Of a DNA stretch of 64,000 nucleotides, positions 41,173 through 50,332 are shown piece after piece. The notes under the pieces were generated by a model. The model was not told the DNA's origin and ran no database searches. It saw only the letters and a list, made by a program, of their open reading frames with translations. The stretch covers positions 8,779 to 72,778 of the forward strand of contig CAMOKM010000001.1 of assembly GCA_946617585.1 (NCBI GenBank). The letters run 5' to 3'. The translations under genes were made by a program, and so were the position numbers. Positions within the stretch are counted from its first letter, which is position 1; every line of letters starts with the position of its first letter. This DNA is from an uncultured Lachnospiraceae bacterium. GTDB lineage: Bacteria; Bacillota; Clostridia; Lachnospirales; Lachnospiraceae.

Positions 41173-41957
41173 TGGGAAAGAAACTGTCTGTAGTCGTACC
41201 CACGTTCAATGAGGCCGGCAATGTGGCGGAGCTTGCCGCCCAGATAGGAGAGGCATTGAAGGGGGTGGATTATAATATCTGGTTCATAGATGACTCAAAT
41301 GACAATACGCCGGAGGTGCTGGAGGCACTGTGCAAAGAGGATGCGCATTGTCATTTCCATCACAGAGAGGGGGATCAGCAGACAGGGCTTGCGACGGCTG
41401 TGATAGAGGGCTTTCATATGGCGGACGGTGATTTCCTCGCCTGCATGGATGCCGATCTTCAGCACCCGCCCAAGGTGCTCCGTCCCATGTATGCCGCCAT
41501 GCTTTCCGGGGCAGACATCTGTGTGCCCTCAAGACTCATCAGGGGCGGCTCCGACGGCGGGCTGAACATAGTGCGCAAGGTGGTGTCAGGGACTGCCAGG
41601 TGGATGGGCAAATTTGCACTGTCTTCTCTCAGGAATATATCCGATCCCACCTCCGGGCTTTTCATGTTCAGAAAGGGGATGCTGGATGGGGCAGACCTCA
41701 GACCGATAGGCTGGAAGATCATGGTCGAAGTGCTGGCAATGTGCGAATACAGGCTCGTGATAGAGATACCATATGAATTCCACGACAGGAATGCGGGAGA
41801 ATCCAAGATATCGAAGAAGGTCTCCATGCAGTATATGGAACAGCTGAAAGACCTGAGAGGACGTGAGATACGTCACGACTCGGTGATCGTGACCAGATGG
41901 TCTCCGGCATTTACCGAATCCATGATCCGCAAGTATTGTCCGACAGAGGAAGTATGA
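41169..41957 (+). CDS. GT2 polyprenol-phosphate hexosyltransferase (DPM1/Ppm1-like)
   Basis: [34 protein letters not shown]. Confidence 0.85.
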
Positions 41958-44812
41958 AAAAGAAAGAAGCAGACATCAGGAAATTTATAAAGATAAGAGG
42001 GGCGAGAGAGCACAATCTGAAGTCTCTCTCGGTGGATATACCGAGGAATCAGCTGGTAGTGATGACAGGCTTGTCCGGATCGGGCAAGTCTTCTCTGGCT
42101 TTTGACACGATATATGCAGAGGGACAGCGACGGTATATGCAGTCACTGTCAAGCTATGCACGTATGTTCCTGGGACAGATGGACAAGCCGGACGTAGAAT
42201 CCATAGAAGGGCTCCCGCCCGCCATATCCATAGACCAGAAGTCCACAAACCGGAACCCGCGCTCCACGGTCGGTACGGTGACGGAGATATATGATTACCT
42301 GAGACTTCTCTATGCGAGGATAGGCATACCCCATTGCCCGGAATGCGGCAAGGTGATAGAGAGACAGACTGCAGATCAGATGGCGGATGCGCTGATGAAG
42401 CTTCCGGAGAGGACGAAGATACAGCTGCTGGCTCCGGTGGTAAGGGGCAAGAAGGGACGCCACGAGAAGGTATTGGAGAGGGCCAGGAAATCCGGATATG
42501 TCAGAGCCATCGTAGACGGATCTCAATATGATCTGTCTGAGGAGATAGAGCTCGATAAGAATATACGTCATTCTATCGATATCGTGGTAGACAGACTGAT
42601 AGTAAAGCAGGGTATAGAGACCCGGCTTGCGGATTCCATAGAGAACGTGCTGGAGATCTCCGATGGTCTGCTGAACGTGGATGTGGACGGCGGAAAAGAG
42701 ACCCTGGCTTTTTCAAACAGCTTTTCCTGTCCGGACTGCGGTATATCGATCCCTCCCATAGAGCCCAGGAGCTTTTCTTTCAACAATCCGTTCGGGGCCT
42801 GTCCCACCTGTGCAGGGCTGGGATACAAGATGGAATTCGATGAAGACCTGATGATCCCGGACAAGACACTGTCTTTCAATGAGGGCTGTGTGAGCTGCAT
42901 GGGATGGATGAACTCCAAGGATCCCGGGAGCTATTCACATGCCCTGCTGGAGGCACTGGCAAAAAAATACAGGTTTTCGCTGGATACCCCTTATGAAAAG
43001 CTTTCCGAAAAGGCAAAGGATATCTTTATTCACGGTACAGGCGGAGAAGCAGTAAAAGTCCACTACAAAGGTCAGCGTTCAGAGGGAGTGTATGAAGACG
43101 CTTTCGAGGGTCTGATAAAGAACATGGAACGCAGATACAGAGAAACCTTTTCGGACTCTGCCAAAGCGGAATACGAGCAGTATATGAGGATCTCTCCCTG
43201 CGAGACATGTAAAGGGCAGCGGCTGAAAAAGGAATCTCTGGCCGTCACGGTGGACGACAAGAACATATTTGAACTGACCGAAATGTCGGTAAAGCAGCTG
43301 CTGAAGTATTTTGATACCATACCGGAGTCTATCACCGAGCAGCAGCAGAGGATAGGCACACAGATAATAAAAGAGATTCATTCGCGGATCCGCTTCATGA
43401 ATGACGTGGGACTGGATTATCTCACTCTTTCCAGAGCGACGGGCACTCTTTCCGGAGGGGAGGCTCAGCGTATCAGGCTCGCCACGCAGATAGGCAGCGG
43501 TCTGGTCGGAGTGGCATATATCCTGGATGAGCCGTCCATAGGACTGCATCAAAGAGACAACGACAAGCTGCTGGCTACGCTCAGGCATCTGCGAGACCTC
43601 GGGAATACGCTGATCGTGGTGGAGCATGACGAGGATACCATGCTGGCGGCAGACCATATCATAGATATAGGACCGGGTGCCGGGATACGCGGCGGTGAGC
43701 TTGTAGCCGAGGGTACTGCGGATGAGATAATGAAGGTGAAGAAGTCGATCACCGGCAGATATCTGTCCGGGGAGCTGTCCATACCGGTGCCGAAGGAGAG
43801 AAGGAAGCCTGCCGGATGGATAGAGATCAGAAAGGCAAGAGAAAATAACCTCAAGAACACAGATGTCAGGATACCGCTGGGTGTGATGACCATAGTGACG
43901 GGGGTGTCCGGATCGGGCAAGTCTTCTCTGATAAACGAGATCCTGTTTAAGACAGCTGCAAAAAAGCTGAACCGCGCGCGTATCATACCGGGGGCGTCCG
44001 ACGGGATAAAGGGTCTGGAGGAGCTGGATAAAGTCATCAATATAGACCAGTCGCCCATCGGGAGGACACCGAGATCCAATCCGGCCACATATACGGGTGT
44101 ATTCGACCTGATCAGGGATCTTTTCGCGGGGACGCAGGAGGCACGTGCAAGAGGTTACAAGAAGGGCCGGTTCTCGTTTAACGTAAAGGGAGGACGATGC
44201 GAAGCCTGCAGCGGAGACGGCATAATAAAGATAGAGATGCATTTCCTGCCGGACGTGTTCGTACCCTGCGATGTATGCCACGGCAAGCGGTACAACAGAG
44301 AGACTCTCGATATCACCTATAAGGGCAGGAATATAGCCGATGTTCTGGACATGACGGTGGAGGAGGCCCTTGATTTCTTTGAGAATGTACCTTCGATAAG
44401 AAACAAGATCCAGACTCTCTATGATGTCGGGCTCGGATATGTAAAGCTGGGTCAGCCTTCCACAGAGCTTTCAGGAGGAGAGGCCCAGAGGATAAAGCTG
44501 GCAGCGGAGCTTTCGAGAAAGAGTACAGGAAGGACCCTGTACATCCTGGATGAGCCGACTACGGGTCTGCACTTCGATGATGTGAAGAAGCTCGTCACCA
44601 TCCTCCAGAGACTTGCCGATATGGGAAATACCGTGGTGGTGATAGAGCACAACCTGGATGTGATCAAATGCGGTGATTATATAGTTGATATGGGGCCGGA
44701 AGGCGGAGACGGCGGGGGTACAGTCGTAGCCTGCGGTACGCCGGAAGAGGTAGCAAAGGTAAAGAAAAGCTATACAGGGTACTACATAGCAAAGATGCTC
44801 GGAAAAAAATAA
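41954..44812 (+). CDS. uvrA: Excinuclease ABC subunit A
   Basis: [18 protein letters not shown], two ABC modules, zinc fingers; ATG 41954 overlaps the GT2 stop. Confidence 0.97.
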
Positions 44813-44826
44813 ATCAAAACAGGGGT

Positions 44827-44853
44827 TAAGAAAACCGGAAAAACTGCCGATGT
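44827..44853 (+). promoter_or_regulatory. Sigma28 (SigD/FliA)-type promoter
   Basis: TAAG-N15-GCCGATGT versus consensus TAAA-N15-GCCGATAW, upstream of flagellar rod genes. Confidence 0.65.
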
Positions 44854-44859
44854 AATATC

Positions 44860-44934
44860 TACATGGAAGTTTTCAGGCGCTCAGCGCTTTCATATATGCA
44901 CGGATGCAGAACACATACTGCATCCGTGTTTTTT
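44860..44934 (+). ncRNA. Candidate small RNA or attenuator leader with two CsrA-type GGA sites
   Basis: Lies between the sigma28 promoter and a terminator; ACATGGAAGT (44861-70) and GCACGGATGC (44898-907). Confidence 0.35.
44898..44934 (+). terminator. Intrinsic terminator
   Basis: GCACGGATGCAG / CTGCATCCGTGT plus TTTTT. Confidence 0.8.
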
Positions 44935-45010
44935 GATTGAAAGTTTTCCGGTTTCGTGGCAATATATAGTATTGGCATTTTGTTGGCAGAAATAGCGAAA
45001 CGAGGAAAAT

Positions 45011-46009
45011 ATGAGCGGAACGGATATAGGAATAGATCTGGGCACGGCCAGTGTGCTGGTGTATATCAGAGGCAAAGGGGTGGTCCTCAAGGAGCCGTCG
45101 GTCGTAGCCTTTGACAGAGATACGAATAAGATAATGGCCATTGGTGAGGAAGCCCGTCTGATGCTTGGGCGTACTCCCGGAAATATCGTAGCGATAAGGC
45201 CCATGAGACAGGGTGTCATCTCGAACTACACTGTCACGGAGAAGATGCTGAAGTACTTCATACAGAAGGCTGTAGGCAAGAGAACGTTCAGGAAGCCCAG
45301 AGTGTGCGTGGGAGTGCCGTCTGCGGCATCCGAAGTCGAGAGGAAGGCCGTGGAGGATGCGGCATACCAGGCGGGAGCAAGAGATGTAAAGATCATCGAG
45401 GAGCCGCTGGCAGCGGCCATCGGAGCCGGGATAGATATCATAAAGGCCTGCGGCAATATGGTCGTGGATATAGGAGGCGGGACCTCCGACATAGCGGTCA
45501 TATCCCTGGGCGGACCGGTGGAGTCGACATCCATAAAGGTGGCAGGCGACGACTTTGACGAGGCTATCGTCAGATACATGAGAAAGAAGCACAATCTTCT
45601 GATAGGCGAGCCGACGGCTGAGGATCTGAAGATCAGTATAGGAGCGGTATTCAAGCAGCCGGAGGTCGACTACATGGATGTAAGGGGCAGAAACCTGCTG
45701 ACGGGACTCCCGGTGACAGTCAAGGTGTCGTCGGAGGAGACGGAAGAGGCCCTGAGAGAGTCGACATCCCAGATCATAGAGGCCATACACAGCGTATTGG
45801 AGCGCACGCCTCCGGAGCTAGCGGCAGATATTGCATCCAGAGGGATAGTGCTCACGGGCGGAGGAGCGATGCTCAGAGGCCTGGAGGAGCTGATAACGGA
45901 AAAGACAGGTATCAACACCATGACGGCAGAGGATCCCATGACCGCCGTGGCGGTGGGTACGGGTAAATACGTAGACTTCATAGCGGGATATCAGGAAGAG
46001 GATAATTAA
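45011..46009 (+). CDS. mreB: MreB-family actin homolog (Mbl-like)
   Basis: GIDLGT, EPSVVA, VDIGGGTSD, LTGGGA. Confidence 0.92.
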   Translation: MSGTDIGIDLGTASVLVYIRGKGVVLKEPSVVAFDRDTNKIMAIGEEARLMLGRTPGNIVAIRPMRQGVISNYTVTEKMLKYFIQKAVGKRTFRKPRVCVGVPSAASEVERKAVEDAAYQAGARDVKIIEEPLAAAIGAGIDIIKACGNMVVDIGGGTSDIAVISLGGPVESTSIKVAGDDFDEAIVRYMRKKHNLLIGEPTAEDLKISIGAVFKQPEVDYMDVRGRNLLTGLPVTVKVSSEETEEALRESTSQIIEAIHSVLERTPPELAADIASRGIVLTGGGAMLRGLEELITEKTGINTMTAEDPMTAVAVGTGKYVDFIAGYQEEDN

Positions 46010-46011
46010 GC

Positions 46012-46812
46012 ATGGTAAAGGGGCTCTACACAGCACACAGCGCAATGATCAACGAACAGCACAGGATGGACACGATGACCAACAACCTGGCTAACGTGTC
46101 GACCACCGGGTACAAGAAGGAGGGTGCTACTTCTCAGACCTTTGCGGACGCGCTCGCAGTAAAGCTCAAGGATTCTTCCGAGTGGTATCTGTCCAGAAGA
46201 CTCGGCAATATGCAGCCGGGAGTTAAGATAGGTGAGAACTATACAGATTGGTCCGAGGGCGGCTTCAGAGGTACGGACAACACCTTTGACCTCGCACTTT
46301 CGGATTCCGGATTCTTCCGCATAGAATTCCAGGATAAAAACGGCAACGTGAGCGAGAAGTACACGAGAGACGGATCCTTCACTCTGACCAAAGAAGGGGT
46401 ACTGGTGACCAAGGACGGAGACTTTGTCCTTGACTCCAACGGCAACCACATCCAGCTGGATCCCATGCAGGATACCACCATTGACAGACAGGGAAACATC
46501 ACTCAGGGGGCCAACAATCAGATCATAGCGACGATAGGAGTCGTCGATTTCGAGAGAAACGAAGAGGGCACGGACTATTATTATCTGGAAAAGTACGGAG
46601 AGAATATGTGGCAGACGGTGGACGGAGCCACGGAGATCCCCTCGAATGCACAGATATACTCCGGCTATCTTGAGCAGTCCAATGTGGAGACAGTTCAGGA
46701 GATGGTCAATATGATAGCGATAAACAGGCAATATGAGATAAACCAGAAAGTGATACAGACTATGGACACGAGTCTGGAAACGGCTGTGAATCAGCTCGGT
46801 AAACTGAGATAA
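46012..46812 (+). CDS. flgF: Flagellar hook-basal body rod protein (FlgF/FlhO-like)
   Basis: NNLANVSTTGYK, YTRDGSF, LEQSNV..V.EM. Confidence 0.8.
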   Translation: MVKGLYTAHSAMINEQHRMDTMTNNLANVSTTGYKKEGATSQTFADALAVKLKDSSEWYLSRRLGNMQPGVKIGENYTDWSEGGFRGTDNTFDLALSDSGFFRIEFQDKNGNVSEKYTRDGSFTLTKEGVLVTKDGDFVLDSNGNHIQLDPMQDTTIDRQGNITQGANNQIIATIGVVDFERNEEGTDYYYLEKYGENMWQTVDGATEIPSNAQIYSGYLEQSNVETVQEMVNMIAINRQYEINQKVIQTMDTSLETAVNQLGKLR

Positions 46813-46831: not shown

Positions 46832-47656
46832 ATGGTTAGATCGCTTTGGACCGCAGCAACTGGAATGATAGCCCAGCAGAACAATGTGGATACTATCGCA
46901 AACAATCTTGCCAATGTGAACACGACAGGGTATAAGACGGAGACGAATGAATTCAAGAGCCTCCTGTATCAGACACTCCAGACAAAGACCACTACAGCTC
47001 ATGCGGTGGAGAATAAGCCCATAGGAGCACAGGTAGGACTGGGTGTGAGAAATGCTTCCATCACGTCACAGTTTACCAACGGCGCTCTGCTGGAGTCAGA
47101 GAGTGCTACCAGCTTTGCCATTCAGGGCAAAGGTTTCTTTGCGGTAAGGGGAAATGACGGGCAGACATATTATACGAGAAACGGCGATTTCAACTTCATG
47201 ATGAACGCCCAGGGAGGACTCACCCTCGCGAACTCCGACGGTCTCCCGGTACTGAATACGAACGGTCAGCCGATCACACTGAACGGGAACTACATCGCCA
47301 ACCGGGTCGAGGTGGATGCCACGGGACAGCTCATGTATCCTGATGCTCAGAACAACCCGCAGCCCATTGCCGGGATGCAGATAGGCATGACGCAGTTCCA
47401 GAATCCCAAGGGCCTTACCAAGGAGGGAGATTCCCTGTATGCGGTTTCTGCCGCATCCGGACAGCCGATGAACGAAGCGACCAACAACAACCTGGAGAAA
47501 TCCGTGATCAGACAGGGATATCTGGAGGGATCCAATGTCCAGGTTGCCGATGAGATGGTCAACCTGATCGTGGCACAGAGAGCTTACGAGCTTAACTCCA
47601 AAGCCATAACCACAACCGATGACATGATGCAGACAGCGAACCAGCTGAAGAGATGA
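46832..47656 (+). CDS. flgG: Flagellar distal rod protein FlgG (FlhP-like)
   Basis: ANNLANVNTTGYK, YTRNGDF, QGYLEGSNV..EMVNLIVAQRAYE.NSK. Confidence 0.88.
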   Translation: MVRSLWTAATGMIAQQNNVDTIANNLANVNTTGYKTETNEFKSLLYQTLQTKTTTAHAVENKPIGAQVGLGVRNASITSQFTNGALLESESATSFAIQGKGFFAVRGNDGQTYYTRNGDFNFMMNAQGGLTLANSDGLPVLNTNGQPITLNGNYIANRVEVDATGQLMYPDAQNNPQPIAGMQIGMTQFQNPKGLTKEGDSLYAVSAASGQPMNEATNNNLEKSVIRQGYLEGSNVQVADEMVNLIVAQRAYELNSKAITTTDDMMQTANQLKR

Positions 47657-47677: not shown

Positions 47678-48115
47678 ATGGATATAGACAGCAGTTATCT
47701 GACAAATCTATCAAGCCAGGCGGTTTCCGAGGCCAATGCGTCAAAGCTGAAGAGCACGCTCTCGAGCATTTCTGAGAACGGCAGCAGGGTAAAGGCCAAG
47801 GGAAGCGGTGTAAACTCGGCTGAAGAGGAAAAGCTTCTCGATGCATGCAAGCAGTTCGAGAGTTATTTTGTCGAGCAGATGTTCAAGGAGATGATGAAGA
47901 CCGTTCCCAAGGATGCCCTTGACACGGGGTCCAACAGCATGCTTGTGGACTATTACAAGGATAATCTTGTGAAGGAATATGCTGCAGAGGCTACGGAAAA
48001 GGAGAGTCTCGGACTCGCTCAGATGCTTTATGAGCAGATGAAGCGTAATATCGGTATCACTCCGGAGGAGGCAGATGCAAAAGCGGCAGCGGCATCGGGC
48101 TCCGGAAAAAAGTAA
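47678..48115 (+). CDS. flgJ: Rod-binding protein (FlgJ N-domain only)
   Basis: ACKQFESYF.EQMFKEM, GLAQMLYEQM. Confidence 0.8.
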   Translation: MDIDSSYLTNLSSQAVSEANASKLKSTLSSISENGSRVKAKGSGVNSAEEEKLLDACKQFESYFVEQMFKEMMKTVPKDALDTGSNSMLVDYYKDNLVKEYAAEATEKESLGLAQMLYEQMKRNIGITPEEADAKAAAASGSGKK

Positions 48116-50332
48116 ATGCTCTTAAAAGGCATAATAGATCATATCGTTTACCGGAATCCGGAGAATTCCTATACAGTACTTATATTGAACACAGCAGACG
48201 GAGGTGATATCACCTGCGTCGGAAATCTGCCTGAGCTCGATCCCGGGGAGGCCGTATCTTACGAGGGGGACTATACCGACAATCCCAAGTACGGGATACA
48301 GTTCTCCGTGACATCTTTCACGATAGATCCCTTAAATGATGCCGCCTCCATATTCAGATACCTTTCATCGGGAGCCGTGAAGGGGATAGGAGCCGGACTG
48401 GCCAAAAGGATAGTGGACAGGTTCGGTGAGGAAACCTTCCGGATCATGGAGGAGGAGCCCGAAAGACTTTCCGAGATCAAGGGGATATCCTTAAGAAAAG
48501 CCATATCCATATCAGAGGCATTCGAGGCCAAAGCCGGGAGCAGACAGGCACTGTCGTTTCTGGGAAACTATTCCATATCACCCCATCTGGGCCAGAAAAT
48601 ATATGACAGATATAAAGAGCGTGTATATGATGTGATCCGTACGAATCCCTACAGACTGATAGAGGATATCGAGGGTGTAGGATTCCTTACGGCAGACAGG
48701 ATAGCGGCGGAAGCGGGAATAGAGAGAGATTCGGAGTATCGCATCAGATCGGCTGTGCTGTATCTGCTGTCAGAGGCATCGGCATCGGGGAGCCTGTGTC
48801 TGCCGGAAAAAGACCTGACGGACAGGACCGCGGAGATGCTGGGGCTGGACAGGGAACCGGTGATACGCCAGATAGATGCCCTCTCCATAGAACGAAGGCT
48901 CATCAGAGAAATATATGAGGATGTGGAGTACTGCTACTCTGATACGGCATATTACGCGGAGGCCGAGGCGGCAGCCCTGCTGCATGATCTGTGTGTGGAT
49001 GAAAAGGCTGATGAGGCAGAGGTTTACGACAGGATATCGGCCATAGAGAAGGAAACGGGAATATCTCTGGAAGACAGCCAGAGGGAGGCCGTAAGGAGTG
49101 CCATCTGTAATATGGTCTCCATCATCACGGGAGGACCCGGCACCGGAAAGACCACCATAATAAACCTTATGATAAGTTACTTTGAAGCAAAAGGGCTGGA
49201 TGTAACTCTCGCAGCACCGACCGGGAGAGCCGCCAAGCGGATGACAGAAGCATCGGGACACGAGGCAAAGACCATACACAGGCTTCTGGGGGCGGGTGCC
49301 GTGATGGGCGGCAATCCATCTGCCGGATTTGAACGCAACGCAGACAATCCGCTGGAAACTGACGTGATCATACTGGATGAGATGTCCATGGTGGATATAT
49401 TCATCTTCAGGTCGCTCCTTCGAGCTGTGGTGCCGGGAACCAGGCTGATACTCGTGGGAGATGCCGACCAGCTGCCGTCTGTCGGACCCGGGGCCGTGCT
49501 AAAGGATATGATACGGTCGGAGTATATCCATGTGACGAGGCTGAAAAAGATCTACAGACAGGCAGCAGCATCTGCCATCGTAAAAAACGCTCACCTGATA
49601 ATAGAAGGAAAGCCCATAACGCTCGATGCCAGGAACGAGGATTTCTTCTTCCTTGAAAGAAATGATGCAGGGAGGATCATACAGGGGATCATCTATCTGG
49701 CAGGAGAAAAGCTGCCCAGACATCTGCACTGTACTCCTGTGGACATTCAGGTGCTGACGCCGGTCAGAAAAGGTCCGCTGGGTGTAGACAATCTGAACCT
49801 CAGGCTGCAGGAGGCCATGAACCCCCCGGGAAGGATGAAGAAGGAGATCGGGACGGTGAACGGCATAATAAGGACAGGCGACAAGGTGATGCAGATAAAG
49901 AACAACTACGAGATGTCGTGGATCGTATCCAACGGCAGGGGTATGGTCACCGAAACAGGGGAGGGAGTATATAACGGTGATATAGGCAGAGTGCTTTCAG
50001 TATCATCGGACAGTGCTTATATCAGGTTTGATGACGGACGGGAGGCCGAGTATAAGGGGGAGGCGCTGTCCGAACTCGAGCTCGCTTATGCCATTACCAT
50101 CCACAAATCCCAGGGAAGCGAATACAGGGCTGTGATACTGCCGCTGCTGTCCGGTCCGCGCATGCTCATGAACCGGAATCTACTCTACACTGCCGTGACG
50201 AGAGCGAAGACAATGGTATGTATCCTGGGACAGAGCCGGACCGTAGAGGATATGATATACAATGAGAGCGAAGAGAAGAGAAATACAGGATTTGAAAGAA
50301 GGATCCGGGAGATGGCTGAAATGGACAGCTGA
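48116..50332 (+). CDS. recD2: ATP-dependent RecD2 DNA helicase
   Basis: HhH KGIG, GGPGTGKT, APTGRAA, DEMSM, AYAITIHKSQGSE, YTAVTRA. Confidence 0.92.
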   Translation: MLLKGIIDHIVYRNPENSYTVLILNTADGGDITCVGNLPELDPGEAVSYEGDYTDNPKYGIQFSVTSFTIDPLNDAASIFRYLSSGAVKGIGAGLAKRIVDRFGEETFRIMEEEPERLSEIKGISLRKAISISEAFEAKAGSRQALSFLGNYSISPHLGQKIYDRYKERVYDVIRTNPYRLIEDIEGVGFLTADRIAAEAGIERDSEYRIRSAVLYLLSEASASGSLCLPEKDLTDRTAEMLGLDREPVIRQIDALSIERRLIREIYEDVEYCYSDTAYYAEAEAAALLHDLCVDEKADEAEVYDRISAIEKETGISLEDSQREAVRSAICNMVSIITGGPGTGKTTIINLMISYFEAKGLDVTLAAPTGRAAKRMTEASGHEAKTIHRLLGAGAVMGGNPSAGFERNADNPLETDVIILDEMSMVDIFIFRSLLRAVVPGTRLILVGDADQLPSVGPGAVLKDMIRSEYIHVTRLKKIYRQAAASAIVKNAHLIIEGKPITLDARNEDFFFLERNDAGRIIQGIIYLAGEKLPRHLHCTPVDIQVLTPVRKGPLGVDNLNLRLQEAMNPPGRMKKEIGTVNGIIRTGDKVMQIKNNYEMSWIVSNGRGMVTETGEGVYNGDIGRVLSVSSDSAYIRFDDGREAEYKGEALSELELAYAITIHKSQGSEYRAVILPLLSGPRMLMNRNLLYTAVTRAKTMVCILGQSRTVEDMIYNESEEKRNTGFERRIREMAEMDS

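Follow-up and report, generated by a model that had tools for sequence, protein, structure and literature searches.

Known CsrA and ANTAR leaders and the mbl leader

CsrA is known in Firmicutes mainly as a translational repressor of flagellin, and its two sites in the Bacillus subtilis hag leader (PMC7652899), a SigD/sigma28 transcript, act on the ribosome-binding site. We analyzed a 64,000-nt stretch of DNA from an uncultured Lachnospiraceae bacterium (GenBank assembly GCA_946617585.1, contig CAMOKM010000001.1, positions 8,779 to 72,778; hereafter the window), in which a predicted sigma28 transcript with two CsrA-type GGA sites ends in an intrinsic terminator. The whole element lies in the 198-bp spacer separating uvrA (end 44812) from an MreB-family gene (start 45011), upstream of the mbl-flgF-flgG-flgJ operon. 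Comparison with relatives indicates that this leader is real and widely conserved in gut and rumen Lachnospiraceae. It probably serves as a kinetically controlled antiterminator gated by CsrA: with CsrA not bound by FliW, sigma28 read-through would supplement the transcription of mbl-flgF-flgG-flgJ. In contrast to the situation in hag, neither site is closer than approximately 95 nt to a ribosome-binding site, and both are coupled to a terminator; the sign of CsrA control is therefore predicted to be positive. A preliminary description of the locus, made from the letters of the window, had offered a CsrA sponge or an attenuator as the function of the element, with a mere uvrA terminator as the mundane alternative.

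In its architecture, the leader is like those bound by the ANTAR proteins EutV, NasR, and AmiR (PMC3369931), which combine a dimeric protein, two hexaloop hairpins, one of them over the 5' arm of the terminator, and termination by default. It is unlike them in its putative ligand, CsrA (with an invariant GGA), its longer and variable spacing, the existence of single-site and apical-loop forms, and its sigma28 flagellar context. The gap operon of Legionella pneumophila (PMC5338858) also has an ANGGA buried in a terminating helix, and CsrA stabilizes the looped form, leading to read-through; however, termination there is Rho-dependent and within the operon, whereas here it is intrinsic and takes place in a dedicated 5' leader, and the system is Gram-positive and under FliW control. 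A role of CsrA at the terminator of the Legionella thi riboswitch has also been proposed (PMC5338858), and CsrA promotes Rho-dependent termination at pgaA. A 2025 review of RNA-binding antiterminators did not mention CsrA. In the literature within reach, which left out many subscription papers, no report was found of this element, nor of any Gram-positive flagellar leader whose intrinsic terminator is opened by CsrA.

CsrB, CsrC, RsmXYZ, and TwoAYGGAY (RF01731; PMC2864571, PMC4333381) share with the leader a small size and GGA hairpin motifs. Compared with CsrB-type sponges, the leader has no Rfam match, fewer sites, a buried key site, and a single copy fixed before mbl. TwoAYGGAY has been proposed to bind CsrA in Clostridia, and Bacillaceae-1 is likewise a motif-based proposal (PMC4333381). 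The earlier remark that neither a sponge nor an attenuator of this kind is described in Firmicutes held, in the literature within reach, for this particular element, but it overlooked that CsrA-binding small RNAs of Clostridia and Bacillales had been proposed computationally. Elsewhere in the genome, three TwoAYGGAY matches were above the cut-off (C144:30-194, C62:1-127, and C62:212-431). In one relative, a TwoAYGGAY element lies between the leader terminator and mbl (L247:1638-1800), and this was the sole match to the Csr/Rsm clan among the relatives scanned.

Conservation and structure of the leader

A total of 195 non-redundant, Lachnospiraceae-centred mbl (mreB) loci were scored by fixed rules; kin among them are not independent, and the raw counts are to be read with the MreB tree contrasts given below. 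Promoter, motif, and terminator occurred together in 27 of the 30 same-genus loci, with that of the window counted, and seven further genera carried the element in an even sample of the family. The sigma28 promoter was followed by the motif GCA-N-GGA-N-GC at 75 of the 195 loci. A terminator was present at all 75, overlapping the motif in 74, whereas 39 of the 41 promoter loci lacking the motif (116 loci had the promoter) had no terminator and two had one. An earlier set scored under identical rules comprised 80 further GTDB loci, mostly new and some repeating earlier ones, and the terminator accompanied 42/42 motif-positive loci versus 3/23 motif-negative ones. Neither promoter nor motif was found at the 27 non-flagellar mbl loci (no flgF/flgG downstream). 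At the 41 loci lacking the RNA element, the promoter is kept and reads straight toward mbl, and thus it appears to serve the operon.

The site at the base of the terminator was compared across 38 loci. Eight of the ten positions of GCA-N-GGA-N-GC were invariant, and both N positions took all four bases. In an alignment of the 16 distinct stems, 89% of the cells were paired and 15 cells were changed on both sides; none of 500 shuffles reached the observed pairing, both-side changes, or covariation score, and slid registers were 30–51% paired, although related sequences can outscore shuffles in such a test. The both-side changes sit at the pair that closes the loop and at both N positions, which covary with the 3' arm, as would be expected if a protein site and a helix were both under selection. 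Stem length and loop vary freely across the loci while the eight motif positions are fixed. These results bore out the expectation of conserved GGA sites and a covarying spacer, and together with the finding that site and terminator overlap and are present or absent together, they lend good comparative support to the attenuator option of the preliminary description.

Two architectures were distinguished. In type A, to which the window belongs, the partner precedes the conserved site and is close to the 5' end; the two are usually 18–23 nt apart, and 37 nt apart here. In type B, the conserved site forms the base of a long terminator and precedes its partner, an apical ANGGAN hexaloop approximately 19–24 nt away. 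Nine loci have a single site, which is inside the stem. A CsrA dimer bridges sites 10–63 nt apart, and best above 18 (PMC7652899); the spacing in the window falls in this range, and the nine single-site loci offer no such pair. In one relative (L017:1270-1429), the leader is enlarged to four or more GGA sites before the usual terminator.

The sigma28 promoter, the two GGA sites, the small hairpin, and the terminator ending at 44934 were all found, by sequence and folding, where the preliminary description had placed them (Table 1). The promoter was compared with the Butyrivibrio sigma28 consensus (PMC3720852), and its form matches that of the flgM promoter on contig C98 of the same genome; transcription is predicted to start near 44860. 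ANGGA at site 1 is kept in most type A relatives, 8–11 nt past the -10 box. The GC hairpin between the sites is present as described, but it is not conserved: close relatives without it have sites 18–23 nt apart, most long-spaced relatives likewise hold inserted hairpins, and its core was found twice in the genome, so that it was rejected as a conserved part and is taken as a lineage-specific insert. A 25-aa open reading frame (44863-44940) starting in site 1 was also rejected as a leader peptide; no ribosome-binding site precedes it, and the ATG, on a variable N position, is lost in many relatives.

The leader of approximately 75 nt folds at -29.5 kcal/mol (z = -4.5), and none of 200 shuffles was as good. 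The composite pattern occurred once in the window and in 0/100 shuffles, a weak control because the pattern was written from this very sequence; the presence of the element at 27 of 30 same-genus loci is the stronger control. Among 161 terminator-like hairpins of this genome, only that of the leader has the full motif in its 5' arm. In folds of nascent prefixes, site 2 forms its own hairpin with GGA unpaired at 0.98–0.99 until the 3' arm emerges, and its unpaired probability in the finished RNA is 0.0. The fit to the CsrA consensus claimed earlier was narrowed to 9/12 SELEX positions at each site, and the loop presentation of site 2 applies to the nascent RNA and not to the finished one. The ANGGAN core can occupy a short, C-G-closed hairpin loop, as in the CsrA consensus (PMC7652899). 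As in an antiterminator, the site overlaps the 5' arm of the terminator, the two folds are mutually exclusive, and the putative promoter is followed by co-oriented genes.

A covariance model gave a single strong match in each genome, at mbl in every case checked, and in every case checked the element was upstream of mbl-flgFG. A multi-copy family was rejected, since most of the weak model matches that were inspected proved to be ordinary terminators lacking a sigma28 promoter; one weak match (G025, contig C181:2001-2062) lies just upstream of a second mbl copy, as if the leader had been co-duplicated. The Rfam search suggested earlier turned up nothing credible for the element, whether in the window or in those relatives that were scanned. 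When 400 Clostridia genomes were searched by pattern and 30 loci were inspected, none of these was both linked to mbl and coupled to a terminator, but the pattern overlooks long-spaced forms, including that of the window, and thus the spread beyond Lachnospiraceae is to be read as not found rather than absent. In distant relatives (L108, L129, and L142, with similar -10 boxes in L131, L136, and L139), a sigma28 -10 box lies approximately 20–35 nt before the mbl start without a leader. The spacers of L027 and L028 are near-identical to that of L030, and the MreB proteins are identical; L027 and L028 keep the promoter without sites or terminator, probably a recent loss of the element that provides a natural control pair. 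The closest relatives of the host are rumen genomes. Cultured carriers of the element include Lachnospiraceae bacterium AC3007 and MC2017 (L147 and L152).

As for the protein, csrA, fliW, and fliA, which the preliminary description had asked to be confirmed, are all in this genome, with fliW and csrA adjacent, and its CsrA keeps the RNA-binding residue R44. csrA was found in 31 of 37 element-bearing genomes, and its presence did not separate element-positive from element-negative flagellated genomes. Searching with the sigma28-plus-motif pattern also brought up the leaders of four flagellin genes; in these, the motif precedes the start codon by 27 nt and a second site covers the ribosome-binding site, the layout of the Bacillus hag target. 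Lachnospiraceae CsrA proteins inhibit motility in a B. subtilis hag assay (PMC13443453). Since the same motif precedes flagellin genes in a hag-like layout and CsrA of this family is active in that assay, CsrA is the likely ligand of the leader, as judged from comparative data. Other sigma28 leaders of this genome (on C98 before flgM, on C105 before a flaG-like gene, and at C42:12980 and C5:28289) carry 1–4 ANGGA near or over the ribosome-binding site, which suggests a translational CsrA regulon wider than flagellin alone.

Proposed mechanism and competing explanations

The events that we infer (promoter use, CsrA binding, antitermination, the direction of control, and the physiological logic) would proceed as follows. 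Sigma28 RNA polymerase would start near 44860, and the emerging site 2 would briefly fold as a small GGA-loop hairpin. A free CsrA dimer, tethered at site 1 or, in type B, at the apical hexaloop, would capture site 2 before the 3' arm is made. With CsrA on site 2, the terminator base would stay unpaired, and polymerase would read through into mbl-flgF-flgG-flgJ above basal sigmaA transcription. When FliW holds CsrA, the terminator would form and an RNA of approximately 75 nt would be released. In Bacillus, cytoplasmic flagellin binds FliW before hook completion, leaving CsrA free (PMC7652899). By analogy to this Hag-FliW-CsrA circuit, CsrA would be free before hook completion, while unexported flagellin holds FliW, and the leader would act as an AND gate (sigma28 on and export not yet running) that boosts rod parts for unfinished basal bodies and then turns off. 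If Lachnospiraceae works alike, sigma28 transcription of the rod genes would take place only while export is not yet running.

If this is correct, a conserved intrinsic terminator opened by CsrA would be a new mechanism and would give the FliW-CsrA switch a positive sign. It would also make sense of early rod parts being driven by a late (sigma28) promoter, since they would not be overproduced after the hooks are finished. For the wider statement, namely that CsrA works as an ANTAR-like antiterminator at an intrinsic terminator and that the leader is a positive output of the flagellin-FliW-CsrA checkpoint, with sigma28 rod transcription only while flagellin is non-exportable, we consider the balance even.

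Several findings weigh against antitermination by CsrA. Opening both sites in the finished leader costs approximately 17 kcal/mol; equilibrium opening of the finished terminator by CsrA was rejected on this energy, and the switch must therefore be kinetic and co-transcriptional. The capture window of type A is short, approximately 15 nt plus a pause, which would explain a tethering site, and in this genome site 1 is only partly unpaired (0.15–0.44) in the nascent folds. The nine single-site loci would require monovalent capture by CsrA. The MreB tree contained 12 state changes but only four independent pairs on well-supported branches; these were concordant in 3.8/4 on average with none opposite (p = 0.125). 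Many flagellated, csrA-positive relatives are without the element, which is thus dispensable. Finally, csrA was not found in 6 of the 37 element-bearing genomes, all of them fragmented assemblies of 66–92% completeness.

Of the competing explanations, the one that survives best, although it is unlikely, is a small RNA made by sigma28 that acts on its own as a CsrA sponge, site and terminator overlapping only to save sequence. The leader has its own promoter and terminator, mbl has a separate downstream promoter, type B forms show a good ANGGAN hexaloop even when terminated, and L017 has its four or more sites. However, known sponges place their sites in loops (PMC7652899, PMC4333381), whereas the most conserved site here is the buried one. 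The mature RNA does not expose multiple GGA sites and has no Csr/Rsm clan match in Rfam. A stand-alone sponge is unlikely mainly because the nine single-site loci have only the site within the stem, so that their terminated form would expose nothing; in addition, the promoter outlives the RNA element at 41 loci and there is one strong copy per genome. The sponge option of the preliminary description is thus disfavoured, and a minor titrating side role of the leader RNA is possible.

It is much less probable that an ANTAR protein is the antiterminator. The leader architecture and the hexaloop rule of these leaders, with A at the first loop position and G at the fourth, fit (PMC3369931), and the second hairpin overlaps the terminator. 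One ANTAR response regulator was found in this genome, and one in 42 of 48 relatives, a frequency that is uninformative; the regulator here directly follows glnA, a nitrogen context. Whereas the conservation of ANTAR loops centres on positions 1 and 4, GGA is invariant here. The linker between the hairpins is approximately 25 nt here versus 5–12 nt in ANTAR leaders, and 14 nt already cripples EutV induction (PMC3369931). Single-hairpin forms exist among the relatives, and the motif is common to flagellin leaders and tied to sigma28.

Equally improbable is CsrA acting with the opposite sign or on stability, in which binding at site 1 or the apical loop would favour termination or protect the 5' end. 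In constrained folds, site 1 can pair with the 3' arm of the terminator, and CsrA is known to protect the 5' end of flhDC in Escherichia coli. The terminator, however, dominates the unconstrained folds unaided, and this explanation leaves the invariant buried site and the single-site forms unaccounted for.

That the hairpin is only the uvrA terminator, with GGA motifs by chance, is very improbable and was largely refuted: it lies approximately 85 nt past the uvrA stop, and GGATGC-like arms also occur in a few ordinary terminators of the genus, but the element persists beside a divergent upstream gene (L024 and L052) or a different one (L025, L049, and L056), uvrA was not found within approximately 700 bp upstream at 16 of the 75 element loci, many uvrA-mbl junctions are without the element, L021 and L022 have a separate hairpin and U-run between uvrA and the promoter, and motif positions stay fixed where stem length and loop do not. 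The leader terminator may also stop uvrA transcripts as a side effect.

The operon, its transcription, and related leaders

The coordinates of the features are listed in Table 1. The preliminary description had noted a single promoter before mbl and missed a sigmaA-type promoter on the 3' side of the terminator. The position of this promoter is kept in relatives, many of which have TATAAT, and also at loci without the sigma28 promoter; as it lies just past the terminator throughout the family, mbl would not depend on read-through.

Table 1. Features of the uvrA-mbl spacer and its flanking genes in the window
Feature	Position	Strand	Remark
uvrA	41897..44812	+	Upstream neighbour, not obligatory for the element; NCBIfam UvrA match above the cut-off
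Sigma28 (FliA) promoter (predicted)	44827..44853	+	-35 TAAG 44827-44830, N15, -10 GCCGATGT 44846-44853
CsrA-type site 1	44861..44870	+	Putative tether for one half of a CsrA dimer
Spacer GC hairpin	44875..44889	+	Lineage-specific insert; shortens the 37-nt distance between sites 1 and 2
CsrA-type site 2 (GCA-N-GGA-N-GC)	44898..44907	+	Doubles as 5' base of the terminator stem
Intrinsic terminator	44898..44934	+	12-bp stem 44898-44929, 8-nt loop, U-run to 44934
SigmaA-type promoter for mbl (putative)	44937..44965	+	TTGAAA, N17, weak -10 CAATAT; 3' of the terminator
mbl (mreB-like)	45011..46009	+	mbl-type MreB paralog; ribosome-binding site 45002-45006
flgF (FlhO-like rod protein)	46012..46812	+	Follows mbl
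flgG (FlhP-like rod protein)	46832..47656	+	Follows flgF
flgJ	47678..48115	+	Rod-binding domain only, 145 aa

The gene order of the mreB-flgFGJ operon in the preliminary description was correct; its first gene, however, is an mbl-type paralog, and FlgJ is a short form with the rod-binding domain only. The B. subtilis mbl-flhO-flhP genes have the same order as mbl-flgF-flgG-flgJ here. The flhO-flhP promoter of B. subtilis is controlled by SigD. flhO-flhP is required for hook completion and has its own promoter (PMC5540618). The mbl-flgF-flgG-flgJ operon has been described for Lachnospiraceae without a reported leader or terminator, and its significance was called unknown (PMC3720852); the leader gives a regulatory handle on this operon. 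recD2 starts at the base next to the flgJ stop, and overlapping genes of comF and the yvyF family come after it (48116-51451), so that read-through may reach these genes as well. Two open reading frames between yvyF and a diadenylate cyclase gene (51452-51856, 134 aa; 51849-52802, 317 aa) had no Pfam match. flgM is not at this locus; it is on contig C98 with its own sigma28 promoter.

Of four rumen or gut metatranscriptomes, two, each from a different study, contained RNA contigs over the leader. They begin within the leader, at 44872 and 44884, approximately 90–100 nt upstream of the predicted sigmaA start, and cross the terminator. None of the four metatranscriptomes covers 44728-44868, on the side of the uvrA end. 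In the RNA runs X6 and X10, no contig lay over the leader among the contigs listed; contigs can show neither absence nor a separate 75-nt RNA. As such contigs show neither ends nor strand and may include DNA, their fit with a start near 44860 and read-through is a weak hint.

Related sigma28 leaders rich in GGA were observed in other genomes. Genome G537 has two copies (L284:6290 and L282:1586), each with a sigma28 promoter, 5–7 GGA motifs, and a U-run behind a terminator-like hairpin, located between genes resembling a sugar-modification (glycosylation) cluster. From their sequences, these are better candidates for a sponge than the mbl leader, or candidates for a second class of attenuator. 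Similar sigma28-driven GGA leaders precede glycosylation-like genes at L235:1567 (minus strand, G078) and L283:912 (G266), and sigma28-driven GGA leaders in such gene clusters may extend the class. At L235, the leader comes after fliS-like flagellar genes; its terminator is strong, and the GGA at the 5' base of that terminator is weaker.
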